A stretch of 64,000 nucleotides of DNA, taken from IMG/VR virus record IMGVR_UViG_3300032285_001268, positions 32,001 to 96,000 of that record. One strand, 5' to 3'. The notes below the pieces were generated by a model. That model was not told where the DNA came from. It ran no database searches and saw only the letters and a list, made by a program, of their open reading frames with translations. Origin of the DNA: a virus. This document shows, in pieces, positions 1 through 10,011 of this stretch; the first letter of the stretch is position 1, and each line of letters starts with the position of its first letter. The translations under genes were made by a program, and so were the position numbers.

Positions 1-101
1 TTGACCTGCTTGGGCAAGTATAAAGTTAAATGCTTGGGCAAAGCAGACGATTGACATTTTGAGCAAAGTATAGTATAATTGTTTTTTAAGGAGCGAAACT
101 T

Positions 102-458
102 ATGCAAGCAACACAGTTTAAAGTTAGCAAAAAGCTAACACTAGTAGGCGTTACACAAGAAGACGACACTACTTGTACAGAGTACAAGTGCAAAGTAAAA
201 GTGCAACTAGCAGGCGACAGTATTTGGGACTGTAATTTAAAAACAGTTACAATTAAAGAGATACACATTGCAGAGACAGACTGGGGCGATGGCGACACTA
301 ACATACACATTGCAGTTGTACACACAGGCGGTGACGACAGCTGGCGCATATACACAGACAGCGGATTTGAGGCTGCTGTTAGCGACTTGCTAGGGACAGA
401 CGTTAGTTTTACAGAGCAGGGCATGCAAGACGACGGCTACGCGAGTATGGAGTTGTAA
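102..458 (+). CDS. Hypothetical early protein (118 aa, acidic)
   Basis: ORF with its own promoter and GGAGCGAA RBS. Confidence 0.8.
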   Translation: MQATQFKVSKKLTLVGVTQEDDTTCTEYKCKVKVQLAGDSIWDCNLKTVTIKEIHIAETDWGDGDTNIHIAVVHTGGDDSWRIYTDSGFEAAVSDLLGTDVSFTEQGMQDDGYASMEL

Positions 459-526
459 TACATAGCGCACTTGACTTTTTGGGTTAAGTGCGCTATAATT
501 AACACTTACACACAGCAGGAGCGAAT

Positions 527-853
527 ATGTTTAATGCAAAAGATTTAGGCAAGCAGTTTATTAAGTTAGTGCAAGCTAAAGACACAGACTTAGTAGAAGA
601 TATTGTTGACTACGACGGCGAGGATACTTACTTGCTAGACTGTTATGTAGACGACGGCGAAGCTACAGACTATGCTAGCATAGACGAGTTAATTGCTAAA
701 GGCATTGACGGAATTGAAACTGTAGATACTGTAACAGTAATGGGTAGCGCAAGCGGCGACACACGCTGTTACAGCAATACTGTTACAGCAATAGTACTAG
801 ACGATGGTACTAAGTGGATGGATGCGGCATACTACGATTTAATTTTTGCTTAA
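527..853 (+). CDS. Hypothetical early protein (108 aa, acidic)
   Basis: ORF with promoter 471-499 and RBS 518-525. Confidence 0.8.
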   Translation: MFNAKDLGKQFIKLVQAKDTDLVEDIVDYDGEDTYLLDCYVDDGEATDYASIDELIAKGIDGIETVDTVTVMGSASGDTRCYSNTVTAIVLDDGTKWMDAAYYDLIFA

Positions 854-862
854 GGAGACTGT

Positions 863-1051
863 ATGAGCAACATGAGCAAAGCAATAGCATTGCATAAGGC
901 AGTGCAGATGTTAGAGGAAGTAGACGCACTAGTGCAAAAAACACTAGGGGCTAGTGACGACTGTTACGATGTGCATTGTGCGCTGGAGGACTTGCAGGAT
1001 ACACTTGCAGGTTTTGCAGAGCAGTTAGAGGAAATGCAAATAACAGAGTAA
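863..1051 (+). CDS. Hypothetical early protein (62 aa)
   Basis: ORF with AAGGAG RBS. Confidence 0.75.
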   Translation: MSNMSKAIALHKAVQMLEEVDALVQKTLGASDDCYDVHCALEDLQDTLAGFAEQLEEMQITE

Positions 1052-1132
1052 AGTGTAGGGCTTTTGGGCAAGCTGGTTGACAGTTTGCCCAAATCGCAGT
1101 ATACTATAGGCTAAGTTAACAAGGAGCGAACA

Positions 1133-1435
1133 ATGTTAAACATCAGCAAAATCGTAAAGGTCTACAACGGCAAAGTAGGTTGCATGTGCGGGTGTGGCGG
1201 CAAGTACAGCTACACAGCTGACGGGGCTACAAACTATGGCCCAGGCTATGACGTCTCCGACATGATTAACGAGCGTAGTGTACGCATTATTACAAAAAAG
1301 ATCCTCAGCAATCCTCTTGTCAAGTTTGAAGACAATTATGCTTATGTAGAGGACCGTGCCCGTAACAAGATGCAAATGGTTGTGTTCAAAGAGCCACAAG
1401 AGGTCTACAGCCCATTTGACACTTGTAACAGCTGA
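1133..1435 (+). CDS. Hypothetical early protein with CMCGCGG motif
   Basis: ORF with promoter 1077-1105 and RBS 1123; sequence YNGKVGCMCGCGGKY. Confidence 0.8.
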   Translation: MLNISKIVKVYNGKVGCMCGCGGKYSYTADGATNYGPGYDVSDMINERSVRIITKKILSNPLVKFEDNYAYVEDRARNKMQMVVFKEPQEVYSPFDTCNS

Positions 1436-1473
1436 CAGTATAATTAAAACTTAAACACAGCAAGGAGCGAACC

Positions 1474-1719
1474 ATGCAGGTTAAAGAGCTAATTGAAGAA
1501 CTCAAGTACATGGACCCAGATGCCGAAGTACACTTCGCCTATAACTATGGCGATCACTGGCGCACTGAAGTGGCCCCAAAGGTCAGTCGGGTGCAGTCGG
1601 GTGCAGTGGAGTTTAGTGACTACCACCGCATGGACAAGGTAGCTGAAGAGGACGAGTGCTGGGACGAAGATACTGGCGATTGGAAAGAAGACGTCCGCAG
1701 GGTTGTGATTATTGATTAA
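1474..1719 (+). CDS. Hypothetical early protein (81 aa)
   Basis: ORF with promoter 1416-1444 and RBS 1464. Confidence 0.8.
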   Translation: MQVKELIEELKYMDPDAEVHFAYNYGDHWRTEVAPKVSRVQSGAVEFSDYHRMDKVAEEDECWDEDTGDWKEDVRRVVIID

Positions 1720-1774
1720 CCCGTAGAACTGAAGGGGATTTGACAAGAGTCTCCTTTGGTGCTATAATTGAGTT

Positions 1775-1964
1775 AAGTTAGAAATTAGGGGTTACCTACA
1801 CCGTTAGGCCCTTGGAGAGGTGGAAGCGTTCCGACGGGGACCTAGTATCCAGGGCAAGAAGGCAGACCTTCGGGCGAAGCTGGCGGGTAGAGTAGGCTGT
1901 AATGACGAAGGCAACTGACGCCCTGGAGACGGTCCTAGGCAGTTAGACCGGAGTTCCCCTAGTT
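1775..1964 (+). ncRNA. Candidate structured non-coding RNA (~190 nt), family unknown
   Basis: Own consensus promoter (1740-1768), no RBS-led ORF, GC-rich. Closing stem 1783-1791/1956-1964, internal stems, and two hairpin loops (AACTGAC, GGCAGT) that are complementary to each other. Confidence 0.65.
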
Positions 1965-2023
1965 GACAACACTATCATTTGGTTGTATAATACATTTTTC
2001 AACAGTACTTAAAGGAGCGAACG

Positions 2024-2515
2024 ATGGGTACACGAAGCATGATTGCTATTCAAAATCCACATAGCAAACAAATCCGCGCAGTCTACTGCCACTGGGATGG
2101 CTACTTGGAGCACAACGGCGCTATCTTGCAGAAGCACTATGCCGCAAGCCCTAAAGTCAACAACCTTATTGCCTTAGGCGACTTGTCTAGCCTGCGCCCT
2201 GAGATTGGTGTGCAACACGCATTCAGCTCGCTTGATGTACCCAAGCAAGAGCAAGAGGCTTACGATAAAGAGCACGGCAACAGTTGCACGTTCTACGGAC
2301 GTGACAGAGGCGAGAAGGACGTGGGCTTTAAGGTGTTTGACACGCTGGCTAAGGCTTGCGATCACTACACTTGGAGCGACTACTACTACTGCTTCAAGTA
2401 CACTAAGGCCAGCGACTACACAGTTGGCGAGTGGCACTACAAGAAGAACGGCGAGCGTTGGAAGAAGCTGGCTCCTGCTATTGCTAAACTTGATCCAAAG
2501 GAGTGTGCAGAATGA
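2024..2515 (+). CDS. Conserved phage hypothetical protein (MGTRS...YCHWDGY type)
   Basis: N-terminal MGTRSMIAI and YCHWDGY motif, common in phage early regions; promoter and RBS present. Confidence 0.8.
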   Translation: MGTRSMIAIQNPHSKQIRAVYCHWDGYLEHNGAILQKHYAASPKVNNLIALGDLSSLRPEIGVQHAFSSLDVPKQEQEAYDKEHGNSCTFYGRDRGEKDVGFKVFDTLAKACDHYTWSDYYYCFKYTKASDYTVGEWHYKKNGERWKKLAPAIAKLDPKECAE

Positions 2516-2727
2516 AAAAGGTAATTGTGCGCACAGAACTATATCAGGAACTTGAGGTTCCTGATAGCTGGGATAGGTATGATGTATACGATTTCCTAGC
2601 CGAGAACGAGAGCTTCCGTGAGGCTTTCCAAGGTGTAAGTAACCAAGATCAAACAGCCCGCATCCTAGACTTGGGTGTGGTTAATGAAACAGTAACAGAG
2701 ATGGGAGAAGAAGCATATGACGACTAA
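2512..2727 (+). CDS. Hypothetical protein (71 aa)
   Basis: ATG at 2512 overlaps the upstream TGA (ATGA coupling). Confidence 0.7.
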   Translation: MKKVIVRTELYQELEVPDSWDRYDVYDFLAENESFREAFQGVSNQDQTARILDLGVVNETVTEMGEEAYDD

Positions 2728-2896
2728 GGCCGGATATTATCGCAAGAAGGCTATGAGTGACAGCAGGTTTGCCACACTCTATGAGGACCCTACCTACGAG
2801 TTGCCCGAGGACAAAGAGTTTGACGGCCCGGGATTTATTGATGTGACAGGCTGGACAGCAGAAGAAGTGCGCCGCCTGGGTCACGCAGACGAATAA
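2717..2896 (+). CDS. Hypothetical protein (59 aa, below track cut-off)
   Basis: Manual translation MTTKAGYYRKKAMSDSRF...GHADE*; overlaps the previous stop. Confidence 0.6.
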   Translation: MTTKAGYYRKKAMSDSRFATLYEDPTYELPEDKEFDGPGFIDVTGWTAEEVRRLGHADE

Positions 2897-2913
2897 CTAG
2901 TTCGCTCCTAGTT
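2895..2913 (+). promoter_or_regulatory. Hairpin displaying anti-RBS sequence TTCGCTCC
   Basis: Stem AACTAG/CTAGTT, loop TTCGCTC; 2900-2909 GTTCGCTCCT is the reverse complement of AGGAGCGAAC. Confidence 0.6.
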
Positions 2914-2930
2914 GCCCTTGAGGCCGGCAC

Positions 2931-2957
2931 GACCCCCTCCGAGATGGGGGTCACTTT
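2931..2957 (+). terminator. Probable intrinsic terminator
   Basis: GACCCCC/GGGGGTC stem followed by ACTTT (short U tract). Confidence 0.55.
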
Positions 2958-3067
2958 ACAGCTAGACTGTGGCTTTTTTGCCACACTACCAGACCAGACC
3001 CCGCTGTAGCGCGGTTGACGCCCAAGCCAAAATCCTTTATAATTACTACATAATGAAGGAGCGGGCA

Positions 3068-3208
3068 ATGAAGATCACTATCAAAATACCAAACAAAACT
3101 AGGGCACACCTAGTTCTATTTTGCAAGGACACACCCTTCAAGCAGAAGCGTGTAGAGAGCAAGATTAAATATAAACGTCAACCTAAGCACAAGGGGAAAG
3201 AGCTATGA
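3068..3208 (+). CDS. Small basic hypothetical protein
   Basis: ATG 3068 after promoter 3015-3043 and GGAGCGGG RBS; Lys/Arg-rich. Confidence 0.7.
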   Translation: MKITIKIPNKTRAHLVLFCKDTPFKQKRVESKIKYKRQPKHKGKEL

Positions 3209-3453
3209 AGGGCCTAATCACCAACCAATGGGACAGGGATAACCTTAACTTCCTGCTCAATACCAAAGACAAAGATCTAAAGGATTGGCATGCACAGGCA
3301 GACGCAGACGATCTAGCCTATGCTCAGGAACTCTTGGCCGCCTACAGCCTAGAGCTGAAACTTCAGGCTGAAGAGCTCCGTATTGAGTGCGAAATGGATC
3401 TAAAGGGCGACTTTAGCCAAGCATTAGCCGTGATTGACAAGATCAAGTTTTGA
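3205..3453 (+). CDS. Hypothetical protein (82 aa)
   Basis: ATGA overlap with the previous ORF. Confidence 0.75.
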   Translation: MKGLITNQWDRDNLNFLLNTKDKDLKDWHAQADADDLAYAQELLAAYSLELKLQAEELRIECEMDLKGDFSQALAVIDKIKF

Positions 3454-3490
3454 TACTATAATATACACTTAAACAACAAAGGAGCGAACT

Positions 3491-3637
3491 TTGAAGACAA
3501 TGACACAGAAACTAGAGCGTGATCGCTTAAATCGGTTAAAGCGTGAGCGTAAAGCCAATCGTCAGTTTGTGCTAGGTGCAGTGATGCTGGCAACTATCTT
3601 TGTAACCCCCTTGGCCGTTGCGGCCTTACTTTCTTAA
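3491..3637 (+). CDS. Small membrane protein (48 aa)
   Basis: TTG start after GGAGCGAA at 3481; basic N-terminus, hydrophobic C-terminus FVLGAVMLATIFVTPLAVAALLS. Confidence 0.6.
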   Translation: MKTMTQKLERDRLNRLKRERKANRQFVLGAVMLATIFVTPLAVAALLS

Positions 3638-3652
3638 TCATAGGAGCGAACT

Positions 3653-4240
3653 ATGCCTAATTGGTGCAACAACTATCTCGAATTAACTCACGATGATCCA
3701 GCAATGATCACTCGTGCCCGTAAGGCCTTTGCAGACGGACGACTGCTGGACGAATTTGTGCCAGTGCCAGAGAGCCTACACATCGTAGCAGGTCGAGTAG
3801 GTGACGACAACGATCCCAAGCAGATTGAGCTTGAGGCACAGGAAAAGGCCAACCTTGAGACACATGGCTACGCCACTTGGTATGACTACTGCGTCAACGA
3901 GTGGGGCACCAAGTGGGATGTAGGTGGTGATGACTACAGCCCTGCAGATGAAAAAGACCCTAATCATACTCGTATGAGTTTTGATAGTGCCTGGGCACCC
4001 CCTGTGCCTGCTATGGCCAAGTTCCAGGACTTGGGCTTCCGAGTCAAGTTGATCTACTGGGAGTCGGGCATGTGCTTCGCAGGCCTGTTTGACGAGAACG
4101 GTGATGACTTCTATGAACTTGGCGGTATGACTGCTGATCAAGTGGCTGAAGAGATCAACCCAGAGATCGACGAGTGCATGTGCATCAGCGAAAGTATGCG
4201 TGAATGGGAAGAAGAAAACGCTGAAGAGGAAGAAGAATAA
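3653..4240 (+). CDS. DUF1281/YubB-like (ferredoxin-like fold) protein
   Basis: MPNWCNN N-terminus, WYDYCVNEWGTKWDV and FDSAWAPP motifs. Confidence 0.7.
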   Translation: MPNWCNNYLELTHDDPAMITRARKAFADGRLLDEFVPVPESLHIVAGRVGDDNDPKQIELEAQEKANLETHGYATWYDYCVNEWGTKWDVGGDDYSPADEKDPNHTRMSFDSAWAPPVPAMAKFQDLGFRVKLIYWESGMCFAGLFDENGDDFYELGGMTADQVAEEINPEIDECMCISESMREWEEENAEEEEE

Positions 4241-4301
4241 CGGTTGACTGCCTTACCAAAAGGCAGTACAATTAGAATTAGTAAAACAACAAGGTACAGT
4301 A

Positions 4302-4448
4302 ATGAAAACCAACAAAGAAAAGAACTTAGAACATGATGCAAGGATGCAGGCCAAGGTTAGACCAAAGCCTGTAGAGTATAATTGGGAACCATTGGATGCA
4401 GTTGTAAAGCAATGGCGCCAAAGGAGTTATCAGAATGAGCAGGCTTGA
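4302..4448 (+). CDS. Hypothetical protein (48 aa)
   Basis: Manual translation MKTNKEKNLEHDARMQ...; downstream of promoter 4244-4272. Confidence 0.55.
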   Translation: MKTNKEKNLEHDARMQAKVRPKPVEYNWEPLDAVVKQWRQRSYQNEQA

Positions 4449-4716
4449 ATTCTATGCTCGTCCGTTAGTTGCCTTTGATGCACACCTAAAAGAACATCGT
4501 CAGATCTACTATCAGTTTGTCAAAACGATGAGTTGGGGTGCTAGTCCATATAGGTTTATCTGCCCAGAAGATCACGGTGGCGATTTGGTTACCATGATCC
4601 AAAGACAGATCAACGACTACTACATCCACAAAGAATTTGGCGATCGACCACCGAAACCTGAGCCTTTGGTTCGCCAAAAAAGAAAGAAAACGGTTGACAA
4701 GGGCTCAAAAAAGTAA
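4435..4716 (+). CDS. Hypothetical protein (93 aa)
   Basis: ORF with AAGGAG RBS. Confidence 0.75.
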   Translation: MSRLEFYARPLVAFDAHLKEHRQIYYQFVKTMSWGASPYRFICPEDHGGDLVTMIQRQINDYYIHKEFGDRPPKPEPLVRQKRKKTVDKGSKK

Positions 4717-4778
4717 TATAATTTGAACATGCTAAGAAATTGGCATTAATTTTAACACACACAGAAAGAGGTAACAAA

Positions 4779-5144
4779 ATGGCTACAGATAAAACATTTA
4801 ATGTATTTGGTGTTTCTAAACTCAATGGCGAGTACAAAGTTCGTTTCGCGAATGACGTGATGCGTATCAAGGTATTGGCCAAACATGGTCATGAAGATAT
4901 CACTCTTGTTGACTTGGAGAAGTCAGTGAGCAAGTATGAAGGTATCAAGGCTATTGCCACTATGCCAGAGTTTGCCAATGCGGCTGCTCAGAGTGCGATC
5001 GCTGAATACTTGGAAGAAAAAGCACCTAAGGCTAAGGTCTCTAAGCCTGTGGCAAAAGCCGCGAAGACTCCGGTAGCGAAGACTACCAAAGCGCCTGCGA
5101 AAGCAGTTCAGAAAGTTACTGAGAACGAAGACGCTCCTTTCTAA
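4779..5144 (+). CDS. Protein with Lys/Ala/Pro-rich (histone H1-like) tail
   Basis: Likely start ATG 4779 after AGAGG; C-terminal KAPKAKVSKPVAKAAKTPVAKTTKAPAK. Confidence 0.75.
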   Translation: MATDKTFNVFGVSKLNGEYKVRFANDVMRIKVLAKHGHEDITLVDLEKSVSKYEGIKAIATMPEFANAAAQSAIAEYLEEKAPKAKVSKPVAKAAKTPVAKTTKAPAKAVQKVTENEDAPF

Positions 5145-5147
5145 TCT

Positions 5148-5330
5148 ATGTTCATTCAGTACGAAGTCTGGGGCACACTCAACGGGCATGAAGAGCTCCT
5201 TGAGTGTGTAGCAACCCTAAAAGAAGCAGAAGAGTTGGCAGAAGAAGAAAGGTTCTTTGCTGATGAGATTTGGATCCTAGAGGACACGGACGGCGACCTG
5301 AAAGAAGTTAAGCGTTACCAGGGCCTATAG
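5148..5330 (+). CDS. Hypothetical acidic protein (60 aa)
   Basis: ORF whose last codons and TAG overlap the tRNA 5' end. Confidence 0.65.
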   Translation: MFIQYEVWGTLNGHEELLECVATLKEAEELAEEERFFADEIWILEDTDGDLKEVKRYQGL

Positions 5331-5397
5331 CTCAGTTGGTTAGAGCAGAGGACTCATAATCCTTTGGTCCCTGGTTCGAGTCCAGGTGGGCCCACCA
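5321..5397 (+). tRNA. tRNA-Ile2 (anticodon CAU, lysidine type) with encoded CCA
   Basis: Cloverleaf GGGCCTA...TGGGCCC-ACCA, anticodon loop CTCATAA, TTCGA T-loop; C4-G69 and C5-G68 (TilS determinants) favour Ile2 over Met. Confidence 0.9.
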
Positions 5398-5400
5398 CTC

Positions 5401-5430
5401 AAAGGTGTTGTAGAAATACAACACCTTTTC
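5401..5430 (+). terminator. Intrinsic terminator after tRNA
   Basis: AAAGGTGTTGTA-GAAA-TACAACACCTTT followed by TC. Confidence 0.8.
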
Positions 5431-5484
5431 TCTTGACATTTTGGCTAGGCCGTGCTATACTATAGGCTAAGTTAACAAGGAGCA

Positions 5485-5679
5485 GTGATGGGTTACAGAG
5501 TTCTTAACACCGTAGACACGATGCGTGACAATTATGGAGCACGTAAAGGCCTAGAAGGTCCTTACAATTTCAACGGCAGAGTGCTTTACTATGATCCTAA
5601 GGAAGGTAAGTATTACGATCCCAGCACAGACTTCTACGTGAGTCATGACGAATATTTTCGGTTGACAGGCCTCATCTAA
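5485..5679 (+). CDS. Hypothetical early protein (64 aa)
   Basis: Promoter 5433-5461; YYDPKEGKYYDP motif. Confidence 0.75.
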   Translation: MMGYRVLNTVDTMRDNYGARKGLEGPYNFNGRVLYYDPKEGKYYDPSTDFYVSHDEYFRLTGLI

Positions 5680-5718
5680 ACCTGTATAATTATACACATA
5701 CACAGCAAGGAGCGAACC

Positions 5719-5913
5719 ATGCAAGTACACTTTATCGACACAGGAACACAGCAAGACTATGGCTTCAAAGAAGTAGAAGTCCACAGCTTCAAAATGGATC
5801 ATGCTGATGCACCCTACGCCATCGTTAGCAACCCATTCTTTCCAGGAGACAGCCTACGGGCCGAGTATAACTTTTACAACGGTAGCCTGCAATGGACGGT
5901 TGACGTCAGTTGA
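5719..5913 (+). CDS. Hypothetical early protein (64 aa)
   Basis: Promoter 5662-5690, RBS 5709. Confidence 0.78.
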   Translation: MQVHFIDTGTQQDYGFKEVEVHSFKMDHADAPYAIVSNPFFPGDSLRAEYNFYNGSLQWTVDVS

Positions 5914-5952
5914 TTTTGGCAGTATAATTAACATATTAACAAGGAGCGAACC

Positions 5953-6153
5953 ATGTACGATATAGTCCAAAACCCAATTCCATTCAATGGATTCTTTTAC
6001 ACACCAGAATCATTTGCCCAACTGCAAGAGCGCATCGAACAGTTGCCAGCAAAGGAACGAGCACTTGTCTACACATTCGTAACACAGGCTATGAATCTGT
6101 GCTATCGAGAAGTAGAAGACAAGATCTTAAGCCGTGAAATCTTTGCACAATAA
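5953..6153 (+). CDS. Hypothetical early protein (66 aa)
   Basis: Promoter 5900-5928, RBS 5943. Confidence 0.78.
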   Translation: MYDIVQNPIPFNGFFYTPESFAQLQERIEQLPAKERALVYTFVTQAMNLCYREVEDKILSREIFAQ

Positions 6154-6162
6154 GGAGCAGTT

Positions 6163-6315
6163 ATGACTACAGCATTTGAAGCAGTTATCTACGCACTCTA
6201 CTACACATGGCCCATGTGGGCTTTCCTGGCCTTGCTGAGTCTAGCCCTGTTCGTAGAAGAAGGCATCAAAGCCTACAGCCTGCGCAAGATGGTTGACAAC
6301 CCCACGCTTTGGTAA
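6163..6315 (+). CDS. Small membrane protein (50 aa)
   Basis: Manual translation MTTAFEAVIYALYYTWPMWAFLALLSLALFVEEG...; AAGGAGCAG RBS. Confidence 0.65.
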   Translation: MTTAFEAVIYALYYTWPMWAFLALLSLALFVEEGIKAYSLRKMVDNPTLW

Positions 6316-6351
6316 TATAATTAAGACTTAAACAGCAACAAGGAGCGAACC

Positions 6352-6600
6352 ATGAAGCTAAACGAAACCCGCACCGTCCCATATGGCACCATCCAGTATG
6401 TAGAGGACGAGGACTTTGGCAAGTGCTATCTAGTGCGCCACAACTTCATCAAACGCGAGATCTTCGCTGACACAGTCAAAGAAGCCAAGCAAGAGCTGGA
6501 AGAACTGCAGAAGGAAATGTCAGAGCTGAACTCTGCTATCTCTAAGCTTCAACGCTATGGCTACAAGGTCTACAAAGAAGTTGACAGCCTGTACGCTTGA
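6352..6600 (+). CDS. Hypothetical early protein (82 aa, coiled-coil C-terminus)
   Basis: Promoter 6293-6321, RBS 6342. Confidence 0.78.
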   Translation: MKLNETRTVPYGTIQYVEDEDFGKCYLVRHNFIKREIFADTVKEAKQELEELQKEMSELNSAISKLQRYGYKVYKEVDSLYA

Positions 6601-6641
6601 GCATATAATTAACACTTACTTAAACAACATTGGAGCGAACA

Positions 6642-6965
6642 ATGATTACAGCAGAACAAATCCAAGCAGGCAAGACTCTAGCAGAAGCGGCTGGTCGTGC
6701 AGAGTACGCCAAATGGGGCGGTGACCGTGGTGCTTGTGGCTTTGCTTGGGTAGAGGTCTACGTGGACCGTACTAACAGCAAACAGGCCAAAGAGCTGATC
6801 AAGGCAGGCTTCCGCAAGGACTACAAACCAAAATGCTTGAGCATGTGGGATCCAGCAGGCTTGCCCGTGCAGAACATCGACATCAAAGAAGCAGGCGCTT
6901 ATGCCTATGCCAACTACCTTACAGCACTGGGCTTGCGGGCCTATGCGGGTAGCAGACTAGACTAA
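6642..6965 (+). CDS. Conserved phage hypothetical protein (GACGFAWV motif)
   Basis: Likely start ATG 6642 after GGAGCGAA at 6632; promoter 6581-6609. Confidence 0.8.
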   Translation: MITAEQIQAGKTLAEAAGRAEYAKWGGDRGACGFAWVEVYVDRTNSKQAKELIKAGFRKDYKPKCLSMWDPAGLPVQNIDIKEAGAYAYANYLTALGLRAYAGSRLD

Positions 6966-7038
6966 CCAAAACGTTAGGGCACATGCCCTAACTGTAGTAT
7001 AATTAATTTATTAACAGCGTAACAAAGGAGCGTAACAA

Positions 7039-7920
7039 ATGGTAGGTAAAGTCGTAACTAGTAAGATGCTAATGGCACTACAGCAAGATACCAAAAGCCT
7101 GGCCCAAGAGCCAGTTAAGAAAGACATCAGCACAGAGACTGATGAGCAGATCCTCAACCGTCTGCGTGATCGCTTTGAGATCTTAGATGACATGACCCGT
7201 GCAGTCAAGAAGGGCGATGTACGTGCTATGATCGTCACAGGCCCTCCAGGTGTGGGCAAGAGCTTTGGCGTTGAGAAAGTACTCAGCAAGCACGATGTGT
7301 TCGCTAACGTAGCAGACGACAAGAAGCTGAAGAAGTACGAAGTGGTCAAGGGTGCGATGAGCGCCATTGGCCTGTACTCTAAACTCTACGAATACTCAGA
7401 TAAGAAGTCAATCCTAGTATTCGACGACTGTGATAGCGTATTGCTTGATGACCTTAGCTTGAACATCTTGAAAGCCGCTCTGGATACCAGCAAGCGCCGT
7501 ATGATCCATTGGAACACAGACTCTAGGCTCTTGCGTTCAGAGGGTGTGCCCAACTCATTCGAGTTCAAGGGTGGTGCTATCTTTATTACCAACATCAAGT
7601 TCGATCACGTCAAGAGCAAGAAGCTACAGGATCACTTGGAAGCACTAGAGTCACGTTGCCACTACCTAGACTTGACTATCGATACAGAGCGTGAGAAGGT
7701 CCTGCGCATCAAGCAGGTAGTTACCGAGCACGGTATGTTAGATGACTATGAGCTGTCAGATGAAGCCAAGCTGGATGTGGTTGCGTTCGTAGATGCCAAC
7801 AAGCATCGCATGCGTGAGCTGAGCTTGCGTACAGTACTTAAGGTAGCAGACCTTAGAGCTAGCTTCCCGGACAAGTGGACTAGCGTAGCAGAGGTTACTT
7901 GTATGCGTGGCAGCCGCTAG
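7039..7920 (+). CDS. AAA+/P-loop ATPase
   Basis: Walker A GPPGVGKS, Walker B ILVFDD, sensor-like FITN, ALESR arginine finger. Confidence 0.85.
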   Translation: MVGKVVTSKMLMALQQDTKSLAQEPVKKDISTETDEQILNRLRDRFEILDDMTRAVKKGDVRAMIVTGPPGVGKSFGVEKVLSKHDVFANVADDKKLKKYEVVKGAMSAIGLYSKLYEYSDKKSILVFDDCDSVLLDDLSLNILKAALDTSKRRMIHWNTDSRLLRSEGVPNSFEFKGGAIFITNIKFDHVKSKKLQDHLEALESRCHYLDLTIDTEREKVLRIKQVVTEHGMLDDYELSDEAKLDVVAFVDANKHRMRELSLRTVLKVADLRASFPDKWTSVAEVTCMRGSR

Positions 7921-7992
7921 GGCTCAGACCCTACATGCCCGTGTAGAGTATACAGAGCAAGCCGGCCCAGACTGGCAGACTCTGTGCAGTGA

Positions 7993-8090
7993 GAACAACT
8001 GACGTGATTCGCTCCCACTAGGTTGTTCGGTAGTGTGGTCCCTGACACCGTAATTCCGATTCGCTCCCGGTTGTGTCAGGGATTTTTTTT
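7993..8090 (+). ncRNA. Candidate 3'-UTR-derived small RNA with two anti-RBS loops; the second hairpin doubles as an intrinsic terminator
   Basis: Hairpin 7993-8028 has loop ATTCGCTCC; hairpin 8039-8082 (10-bp stem) has a loop ending TTCGCTCC, followed by T8 (8083-8090). Confidence 0.65.
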
Positions 8091-8094
8091 GGCT

Positions 8095-8131
8095 GGGGTA
8101 ACCGGGGTGGTGGGGCCAATAGAGGGGTGGG
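8095..8131 (+). other. G-quadruplex-forming motif
   Basis: GGGG at 8095, 8104, 8112 and 8124 with loops of 5, 4 and 8 nt; intergenic. Confidence 0.5.
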
Positions 8132-8283
8132 AGGCTTATATGTTAGCAACTACTAACTTAGCTAGCTAGCGCATGGGTACCGAGCTTTTTTCCACCATCT
8201 AAAAGTTTAAGTACTTCTTTATAATTTTTTACGCGGCAATTTTTTTAGGCTGCAGGACCCATTTCGGGCTATATACTATTACT

Positions 8284-8466
8284 ATGAACAATCAAGACTA
8301 TAACCAAACTGTGCTTATACGTGGTCGTCTATATCGCTATGATCCGGACTTTGATGCCTATTATCGTGTACAGGAGCAGGAAGGTCCCGTGAGTCGTTGG
8401 GCTTGGATTGCCCTCTGTGCTCTGCTGGCCATCGTAGCTTTCTGCATAGAATTTCGTCCCCTATAA
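8284..8466 (+). CDS. Small membrane protein (60 aa)
   Basis: ORF with a C-terminal hydrophobic helix. Confidence 0.65.
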   Translation: MNNQDYNQTVLIRGRLYRYDPDFDAYYRVQEQEGPVSRWAWIALCALLAIVAFCIEFRPL

Positions 8467-8472
8467 GCTACT

Positions 8473-8697
8473 GTGCGCGAATACTACATACTCACGCTAG
8501 ATCCACGTGCCAGAGAAGTTATCACATGGATCGTTGATCACAATATCACCTGTGATGTACACCTTAATCGCACACGTTTTTGGGTTCCAGAAGGAGTATT
8601 ATCTACAGAGTTTCATCTACGCTTCAGTGACTGTTGTCCCCCTGTAGATCCCGCTGATGATCTACTCATTGGGCGCACACGCTACGGCCCATTCTAA
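8473..8697 (+). CDS. Hypothetical protein (74 aa)
   Basis: ORF track; follows the previous gene closely. Confidence 0.6.
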   Translation: MREYYILTLDPRAREVITWIVDHNITCDVHLNRTRFWVPEGVLSTEFHLRFSDCCPPVDPADDLLIGRTRYGPF

Positions 8698-9047
8698 CCA
8701 GCCAAAAGAAAAGCTCCACGAATAGAGCTTAAGGTTGCGGGCACGACCCGTATAGATGATCAAATTTTTACAACACTATGCGTTTGGTGGATTCTCCAAA
8801 TGGCACATTAGTTTGGTTCTCTTATACATAGTATACCCTCCCCTTGTTGTAATAGTATTTACAGATTACACCTAGATTACCGCGTCAAATGGGCTCGTTT
8901 TGCTCCATTAGATCTTTAACCAAATCAGGCCAATTAGGTAGCCTAGGGCAAAAGAGTATACCCCCAATAGCATCAACGCTAGGGGATATAACCAGTGATT
9001 TTCTACTATTTCTTTCAGTGTCATATGATTATTTACTATATACTAGC

Positions 9048-9266
9048 ATGAACACGCACATTTGGCTCACTAAACTCATCGCAGGATTGATCAGCATCTT
9101 TCAAGCTAGTACCTTAAGGGATAGGTATTATTCAGCTCTAAACAGAGTAGAGATCCTGGAAACTGCCCTAGAGGACATAGCTCGTATAAGTGAGTCTAGG
9201 GTAGATTCTAGTGAACGGCACAGGCTGATCAAGGGTATATGCGATAGAGGACTGGATCGAGAGTGA
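9048..9266 (+). CDS. Hypothetical protein (72 aa)
   Basis: Likely start MNTHIW at 9048, immediately after an AT-rich -10-like element. Confidence 0.55.
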   Translation: MNTHIWLTKLIAGLISIFQASTLRDRYYSALNRVEILETALEDIARISESRVDSSERHRLIKGICDRGLDRE

Positions 9267-9354
9267 ATCTTACTGCTAGCGGAACGCTGTGTTTCGCGTT
9301 TTACCGCTACGCTACTTCGTAGCTAGTCTAAAATTTTTCCGCTCGGCTTCGCCC

Positions 9355-9966
9355 TTAAAAATTTGCTGGGCCGCTCCGCTTAGTGTAAACACTCATGCAG
9401 ACTCCATCATTCACGTGAGTGCGTTCCAAATACCAAGTAGGAGTGCGAGTAGCAATCTCAGCCAGCTGTTCCTGCTTGTGTATTAAGACTAGGTGTGCAT
9501 CGTCAGTGGTATAGGCATCAGCTGTGTCTAAGATATAGAACAGGTGTTCAAGTCCAGTGGCGCCTGCGATCACGCTGGCTTTCTTTAGATAGTCATGTGC
9601 TTGGGGCATGGCTGCCCATTCAGCTTCGGTATCGTGCGGGGGATTGCTCATGACTAGGTCAAACTTGGGTGTGGCCACTTCGGGCCAAAAATTTGTGACC
9701 GTGTGTACGTTTAGATTAAGGGTCAGTCTGTTGACTCCCACGCACTGTGCCAGGGGTAGGTCTGTGGCCCATATACCTGCTCGGGGCCATTGTTTTTCAG
9801 CCCATAGAGCCATACAGCCCGTGCCCGTGCCTAGATCGGCTACGGCCTGCTTGGGAGGTAGATCTTTAAGGTGATCTATTAGTTCAGCCAGTTGGGGTAG
9901 GGGTAGGACCACATGCTCGGTGGCTGTTAAGACAAAATCATTCCAGTGTACTTGATATTCCATCAT
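9355..9966 (-). CDS. PrmC/HemK-like SAM-dependent methyltransferase
   Basis: DLGTGTG SAM motif, FDLVMSNPPH (NPPY-type) motif, AGATGL matching the GGxDGL region. Confidence 0.75.
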   Translation of the reverse strand: MMEYQVHWNDFVLTATEHVVLPLPQLAELIDHLKDLPPKQAVADLGTGTGCMALWAEKQWPRAGIWATDLPLAQCVGVNRLTLNLNVHTVTNFWPEVATPKFDLVMSNPPHDTEAEWAAMPQAHDYLKKASVIAGATGLEHLFYILDTADAYTTDDAHLVLIHKQEQLAEIATRTPTWYLERTHVNDGVCMSVYTKRSGPANF

Positions 9967-10011
9967 GTACTTATCGGCCTGACCCCCAGGGTAGATCTGA
10001 TCCTGAGCGGG

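Follow-up and report, generated by a model that had tools for sequence, protein, structure and literature searches.

A putative antisense hairpin family in the early 3′UTRs of uncultured freshwater T4-like phages

Introduction

Directly behind the stop codon of a short open-reading frame (ORF) in an uncultured phage genome stands a small hairpin whose loop region is the exact complement of a ribosome-binding site (RBS) that recurs throughout the phage's own early genes. Is this hairpin an RNA element that acts on early translation, a docking site for a protein, a scrap left by the shuffling of gene cassettes, the partner of some other RNA structure, or an accident? We addressed the question in a window of 64,000 nt, which covers bases 32001-96000 of one virus record; the record has 185,262 bp, 40.7% G+C and a completeness of ~50% (CheckV). 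Coordinates are those of the window unless they are marked as genome positions.

Results

A tagged early block in a T4-like lake phage

The source of the hairpin is an uncultured T4-like lake phage. The product of its AAA-ATPase gene (7039-7920) matches PHROG 1250 and shows at most 47% identity to PA5oct and T4-like NrdC.10-type proteins. GenBank phages gave no DNA match to the virus record beyond a tRNA-Met gene; IMG/VR holds hundreds of related contigs. The tRNA-Met (CAT) lies at 5321-5397 in the early block and shares 88-92% identity with its counterparts in Acinetobacter T4-like and Pseudomonas phiKZ-like phages.

The + strand block at genome 26.3-40.1 kb, which reaches to ~8.1 kb in the window, is flanked by minus-strand genes. 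It contains ~24 near-consensus TTGACA-N17-TATAAT promoters, each followed by a short leader and then, in most cases, by (A)AGGAGCGAA(C) 1-4 nt before the ATG. Most early genes carry the tag GGAGCGAA, which spans the Shine-Dalgarno (SD) sequence and the spacer, and whose complement is UUCGCUCC. One 2.7-kb part of the block, genome 30364-33087 (window 1-1087 plus sequence upstream), has 5 TC and 6 CC dinucleotides on the coding strand, compared with ~90-180 in neighbouring stretches of like length. Given this scarcity, mRNAs from that part can hardly hold an anti-SD-like CUCC.

A hairpin at the 3′ end of an early unit

The features of the unit that ends at the hairpin, and of the region behind it, are as follows.

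1963-1991, + strand: sigma70-type early promoter, consensus TTGACA-17-TATAAT, at the head of the unit that ends at hairpin 2895-2913
2013-2022, + strand: RBS AGGAGCGAAC of gene 2024-2515, the first in the unit; matches 2900-2909 exactly over 10 nt, with pairing predicted in the full-length transcript
2717-2896, + strand: 59-aa ORF at the end of the unit, without a family match; its TAA stop abuts the hairpin
2895-2913, + strand: anti-RBS hairpin, stem 2895-2900/2908-2913, loop 2901-2907; core CTAGTTCGCTCCTAG (2898-2912) invariant in 8 related loci
2931-2952, + strand: GC-rich, terminator-like hairpin GACCCCC/GGGGGTC, arms 2931-2937/2946-2952, -15.9 kcal/mol
2968-2985, + strand: third hairpin, UGUGGC-U6-GCCACA, -10 kcal/mol, z -4.7
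3015-3043, + strand: next early promoter, TTGACG-17-TATAAT, forming a PeSL-like cassette with hairpin, stem-loop and RBS
3641-3653, + strand: RBS TAGGAGCGAACTA of the gene 3653-4240, 13-nt complement of 2898-2910

Transcription from the promoter at 1963-1991 would place the hairpin at the 3′ end of its unit. Its sequence reads as originally described: the stem arms AACTAG (2895-2900) and CTAGTT (2908-2913) enclose the loop TTCGCTC (2901-2907), after the TAA stop at 2894-2896. The complementarity is likewise as stated, with 2900-2909 an exact 10-nt complement of AGGAGCGAAC, a sequence that marks 8 RBSs of the window and 11 of the whole genome. All 8 + strand copies in the window lie just upstream of starts. 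On the minus strand of the window the sole copy is 2900-2909, where shuffles give an expectation of 0.04. The claimed 13-nt match between 2898-2910 and 3641-3653 is real, and TAGGAGCGAACTA occurs only at 3641-3653 (+) and 2898-2910 (-). Since TAGGAGCGAACTATG is read at 3 of the 11 RBSs, some extension past 10 nt is expected and the 3 extra bases add little. The label DUF1281 given to the protein of 3653-4240 was not reproduced: Pfam returned no match of any kind for it, even at E<=10.

Folded by itself the hairpin has little stability (-4.7 kcal/mol), and the minimum-energy structure of a 111-nt stretch around it contains a competing CGAAU/GUUCG stem in its place. The loop begins with UUCG, which fits the YUNR U-turn motif that Franch et al. 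are said to have described in 1999 for antisense recognition loops; we count this fit for an antisense reading. A second hairpin with the same AACTAG...CTAGTT stem, around the loop GGCACAC, lies ~200 nt downstream at 3097-3115, inside ORF 3068-3208, and was flagged on both strands by a terminator scan.

Two other readings of 2900-2909 were discarded. As a minus-strand RBS, it would place the SD ~20 nt from GTG 2884, the start closest to it on that strand, and the ORF lacks conservation. As the remnant of an inverted promoter cassette it would need a -10 or -35 box, and there is none beside it.

The GACCCCC/GGGGGTC hairpin had been called a terminator. The stem-loop is there, but ACUUUAC follows it in place of a U-run directly after the stem, and the terminator scan did not call it. 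The name holds by homology only, because the orthologue in one related contig (L197) has a T7 run after it. Together with the hairpin at 2968-2985, the promoter at 3015-3043, an RBS and the ATG at 3068, this stem-loop makes up the layout of a PeSL. Passages of one study describe PeSLs of T4-like phages, in which a stem-loop directly precedes a sigma70-type early promoter and the promoter leads to an SD and a start; the units are repeated through hyperplastic early regions and linked there to gene swapping (PMC4122927).

Transcript-sense copies of the loop motif lie in early 3′UTR hairpins

A motif common genome-wide in random contexts was the outcome named in the original prediction as speaking against it. 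We found the opposite distribution. The sequence TTCGCTCC has 7 + strand copies in the 185-kb genome. Two of these are genuine RBSs of minus-strand genes (genome 26201 and 112730), two lie inside minus-strand genes (genome 71115 and 128814) whose mRNAs carry the sense form, and the remaining three are hairpin 2895-2913 and twin hairpins at window 8008 and 8060. Every transcript-sense UUCGCUCC in the 185 kb (3 of 3) thus sits in the loop of a 3′UTR hairpin of the early block, and a one-mismatch search of that block for the loop motif gave no further copies. The twins are listed below.

7993-8028, + strand: first sister anti-RBS hairpin, GUG-AUUCGCUCC-CAC enclosed in a longer stem; follows the AAA-ATPase gene
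8039-8090, + strand: second sister anti-RBS hairpin, CCG-AUUCGCUCC-CGG, forming the tip of the T8 terminator with which the early block ends

The start region of a divergent 75-aa gene on the minus strand (genome 26009-26233), CGGGAGCGAACCUAUG at genome 26196-26212, lies 5.8 kb upstream of the window. It offers 10 contiguous pairs with the twin loops, closing C-G pairs included; ordinary early RBSs give fewer.

An invariant loop on changing stems

As first noted, hairpin 2895-2913 differs in its stem from the 8.0-kb hairpins, where GTG/CAC and CCG/CGG form part of longer stems. The same independence of loop and stem runs through the relatives. Downstream of the AAA-ATPase gene, TCGCTCC is present in 80 of 80 related loci, with at least 2 copies within 200 nt in 76 of them, and its last copy is typically at the tip of a U-run terminator. 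Among 161 distinct contexts, ~100 have the loop AUUCGCUCC, and the inner stems around it covary (CCG/CGG in 80, GUG/CAC in 12, CUG/CAG in 3, GCG/CGC in 2, and others). A flanking stem of at least 3 bp is found in 112 of the 161 contexts, compared with 24 of 402 RBS-sense controls, and in RNAfold predictions the motif falls within a hairpin loop in 106 of 161, a count that drops to 9-17 of 161 when the flanks are shuffled. Placement in the 3′UTR ahead of a terminator is general: 92 of 108 distinct hairpin contexts lie outside + strand ORFs, at a median of 73 nt from the end of the last ORF, and 93 of 108 have a T-run within 100 nt. The exact 15-mer CCGATTCGCTCCCGG gave more than 120 IMG/VR matches; among the matches listed, 87 of 125 sites are in an early-promoter or RBS context. 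The RBS tag is equally family-wide, with 150 copies of AGGAGCGAAC and 123 of AGGAGCGAAA in the fetched loci.

Selection on the loop, proposed from the window's own hairpins, is therefore strongly supported: across hundreds of related contigs the loop stays invariant while stems and flanks change. The hairpins also keep company with the tag. In 80 loci around homologues of a 163-aa protein, they occur in 19 of the 39 loci with GGAGCGA RBSs and in 0 of the 41 without, counts that are uncorrected for phylogeny. Judged by sequence, hairpin 2895-2913 is a true member of a conserved 3′UTR hairpin family, which belongs to a clade of uncultured freshwater T4-like phages. Rfam 15, which includes phage C4 and the staphylococcal Rsa RNAs, gave the tRNA as its sole real match in window 1-10000 (E<=1) and none at 2880-3000 or 7900-8100. 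A literature search with the motif string returned nothing relevant.

An invariant 9-nt loop on short covarying stems is also the classic signature of a protein operator. The hairpins could be bound by an RNA-binding protein of the phage or its host, for example one that serves in processing, stability, termination or antitermination, on the model of lambda boxB or the T4 gp43 operator, with the RBS complementarity secondary. Their position in or adjoining terminators would suit such a protein, as would the unpaired bases that, by eye, recur beside the inner stem (e.g. UAA(A/G)(U/C) before CCG). What a protein site leaves unexplained is the exact 8-10-nt complementarity of the loop to an equally invariant early RBS, and the restriction of the hairpins to loci that use GGAGCGA RBSs; nor has a candidate protein been identified. 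Profile searches of the ~50% complete genome for RegA (PF01818) and RegB (PF10715) gave no match, a result that is uninformative because the controls were silent as well. We consider this explanation unlikely.

Alternatively, the loop may have its true partner elsewhere. Certain late genes have in their 5′UTR a sense hairpin, CCG-GGAGCGAAU-CGG, which could meet the anti-RBS hairpin by loop-loop kissing. In these leaders the exact reverse-complement 15-mer stands between a late-promoter-like TAAATA box and the ATG of csgF-like and holin-like genes, in the jumbo-phage fragments L236 (7015-7031), L238, L259, L260 (4010-4038) and L316. The window's own genome (~50% complete) is without the sense hairpin, however, and the contigs that have it are fragments of distant phages in which only sense copies were checked or seen. 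A kissing partner of this kind is quite improbable.

Several further features of these loci are recorded here. The csgF-like products next to the sense hairpin are secreted proteins, and in L260 the sense hairpin is followed by a second RBS, AAGGAGCGAAC. In other relatives, L142 (4824-4860), L130, L134 and L146 among them, the first anti-RBS hairpin is followed by GTATTTAGC, the complement of which is TAAATAC. The minus strand there thus reads a late-promoter-like box and a sense hairpin, as in the csgF-like loci, and no minus-strand ORF comes after these sites.

A movable module

The core of the hairpin at 2895-2913, CTAGTTCGCTCCTAG, has 20 exact IMG/VR matches. Eight are on the sense strand in an early-promoter context (L191, L193, L197, L198, L199, L201, L205, L209); at least two others (L204, L206) look like RBSs on the minus strand of phages unrelated to this one, and the remainder is unrelated sequence. 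In 8 of 8 early-promoter loci a stop codon adjoins or overlaps the start of the hairpin, whose stem often includes the TAG, and the genes that precede the hairpin are unrelated to one another. A GC-rich stem-loop comes next in most of the eight, and then a TTGACA promoter. The GACCCCC...GGGGGTC hairpin is common to the window, L193 and L197; a T7 run follows it in L197, and L199 and L201 have U-runs as well. Alignment A1 has 15 invariant core columns and a mean column identity of 48%. At its fifth pair the stem has A-U in the window and L193, and G-C in L197, L199 and L201.

The same hairpin/terminator module stands behind unrelated genes in L193, L197, L199, L201, L191 and L209. In L001-L012, which are the closest relatives when judged by the 163-aa protein, no hairpin of this kind lies downstream of its gene. 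Without syntenic conservation, hairpin 2895-2913 behaves as an accessory, movable module. This mobility, in a region built of ~24 promoter-RBS cassettes, speaks for a by-product of cassette shuffling, in which an inverted scrap of an RBS region travels with PeSL-like terminator-promoter cassettes and is functionless as RNA; passages of the PeSL study describe such elements as mediators of these swaps (PMC4122927). But a passenger of this kind should not always lie sense to early transcription and always in a 3′UTR, keep its loop invariant while its stems covary, or be retained in 80 of 80 ATPase loci, and no promoter remnant lies beside the inverted RBS. We regard the by-product explanation as improbable.

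There is, finally, the view that the complementarity has no biological meaning. One 8-mer match per few kb is not rare, and the hairpin is weak. Recurrence, position, covariation and co-occurrence statistics all contradict chance, which we consider scarcely credible.

Predicted pairing with tagged RBSs

The reading that we prefer, with a probability of about 0.55, is that the hairpin acts as an antisense element from the 3′UTR and would pair with tagged early RBSs, in trans or through fold-back onto the 5′ RBS of its own transcript. Structure predictions are consistent with both routes. In isolated 3′ fragments the loops are predicted to be unpaired with P of at least 0.93. Cofolding of hairpin 2895-2913 with 14 early start regions gives net energies of -11 to -21 kcal/mol, as the weak stem opens and adds pairs, and the RBS at 3641-3653 forms one of the strongest predicted duplexes (-19 kcal/mol). 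The fragment with the twin hairpins gives -6 to -13 kcal/mol with early start regions.

Within single transcripts, the equilibrium prediction for ~1998-2960 pairs the RBS at 2013-2022 with 2900-2909 (P~1), and mutation of the loop is predicted to free that RBS. In the ATPase unit (6616-8090), equilibrium prediction pairs loop 1 with the 5′ RBS at 6632-6639 (P 0.7-1.0) and leaves the terminator loop free.

The original prediction had allowed for pairing in trans or intramolecularly on read-through transcripts. The first part stands, in that cofolding makes pairing in trans energetically favourable. The second does not extend to the next downstream RBS: in a fold of 2700-3120, 2900-2909 pairs with 3054-3063 at P=0, and 3054-3063 pairs with 3033-3040. 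Pairing with the next RBS on read-through RNA was rejected on this ground, and we favour antisense occlusion of tagged RBSs, whether by trans action or by fold-back.

The local pairing in that fold is an observation in its own right. On read-through RNA, the RBS of gene 3068-3208 (3053-3060) is predicted to pair (P~1) with UCCUUUAU at 3033-3040, inside the spacer/-10 region of promoter P3015. Transcripts from P3015 start past this segment, so the RBS would be open in them. The logic of such predicted masking is that of T4 genes e, soc and 49.

How far might fold-back account for the family? Across relatives, the tag is barely commoner at the RBS that comes first upstream of a loop, with exact GGAGCGAA at 47% vs 45% and GGAGCGA at 75% vs 58%, uncorrected for phylogeny. 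Three loops serve ~17 tagged RBSs in this genome, and a strict cis model therefore cannot be general. In relatives, many early RBSs are GGAGCAC or GGAGCAG, and their pairing with the loop would be 5-6 nt long.

Searches for co-variation of RBS and loop found no clade in which loop and tag had changed together, both motifs being invariant. One-to-many pairing would explain why the tag and the loop are both frozen. No other CTCC loop turned up in a regular-expression search of the fetched loci, and an IMG/VR scan for variant loops between CCGAT...TCCCGG flanks with a T-run gave 101 matches, 0 of them in an early-promoter context. Loci with the other tags GGAGTTGA, GGAGCTGA and GGAGCACA yielded a sole candidate, which proved to be coding: TCAACTCC in L045/L048 lies inside a minus-strand 241-aa ORF, and the other copies in those contigs are all coding.

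Discussion

The loop, its position behind early genes and its tie to the RBS tag are conserved in hundreds of related contigs, and the family is on that account probably an RNA switch on early-gene translation. In the mechanism that we propose, each family hairpin lies between a stop codon and a terminator-type stem-loop and would present UUCGCUCC in its loop. Base-pairing of the loop with tagged RBSs would most likely block 30S binding and so limit or shut off early translation. Acting in trans, the terminator-protected 3′ ends of early transcripts could reach many early mRNAs. In cis, a completed 3′ end could fold back onto the 5′-proximal RBS of its own transcript.

Regulators of this kind are known, and the conservation of the element is real, yet on sequence grounds it appears to fall in no described RNA family. 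The nearest mechanistic parallel is in Staphylococcus, where UCCC loops of RsaE and RNAIII bind the SDs of many mRNAs and block the initiation complex; the unpaired C-rich motif lies in conserved loops, often in several copies and near the terminator, as it does here (PMC2790875). The phage hairpins likewise have a C-rich motif that is predicted to be unpaired in the loop and an 8-13-nt complement to several SD regions. They share no sequence or Rfam relationship with the staphylococcal RNAs and are phage-encoded elements of mRNA 3′UTRs. Unlike those RNAs, they would use an 8-10-nt seed that reads a private tag (CGAA) beyond the SD, and their targets would be the phage's own early regulon.

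Phages have their own precedent in c4 of P1/P7. According to work attributed to Citron and Schuster in 1990, c4 reportedly acts on the ribosome-binding region of its target through short loop complements. It is encoded in the immI operon and is thus an antisense RNA from the same operon as its targets (PMC8198154). Whereas c4 lies upstream of a single target, is cut from the transcript and controls lysogeny, the present element is 3′-terminal, would act one-to-many and has no Rfam match.

The likeness to hok is in overall shape. Translation of hok mRNA is inhibited by fold-back, and the 5′-3′ closure predicted for both units here resembles it. Masking of an SD by the same RNA is also known in T4, where a segment of the transcripts of genes e, soc, 49 and I-TevI pairs with the SD and some transcript forms go untranslated (PMC3014915). 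Those are local hairpins that span an internal promoter, whereas the partner here lies ~880 nt away at the 3′ end.

The arrangement in which the hairpin is embedded corresponds to PeSLs, with stem-loop, early promoter, SD and start in the same order. It differs in having one more hairpin, with an invariant loop, ahead of the terminator stem; the passages of the source that deal with PeSL stem-loops describe them as terminator stems and mention no anti-RBS loop (PMC4122927).

For the biology of the phage, a comparison is the shut-off of early genes in T4, where a common GGAG-type SD singles these genes out for coordinated inactivation, with RegB and RegA as the proteins involved (PMC3014915). 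The logic would be the same here, with a shared SD as the mark. The agents in T4 are proteins, and the RegB consensus GGAGRAYARAA does not fit GGAGCGAAC. We tentatively suggest, at somewhat less than an even chance, that these phages use a private RNA code: the tag GGAGCGAA on most early genes, its exact complement in the loops of early 3′ ends, and RNA alone to time or shut off the early regulon. As of a 2010 review, no small trans-acting regulatory RNA of T4 had been functionally characterised (PMC3014915). If the code exists, early shut-off would proceed without a RegA- or RegB-type protein, through fold-back on finished transcripts, trans-acting 3′ fragments or both, and the conservation of the early RBS beyond the part that pairs with 16S rRNA would be explained.

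The hairpin would bring a regulatory element into the mobile terminator-promoter cassettes known from T4-like genomes, and its motif could be used in RNA family libraries and as a marker of early regions in metagenomic phage contigs. With a simple target rule, an 8-10-nt seed against a tagged RBS, it provides a sequence-defined and widely conserved RNA candidate for early shut-off in abundant uncultured lake phages.
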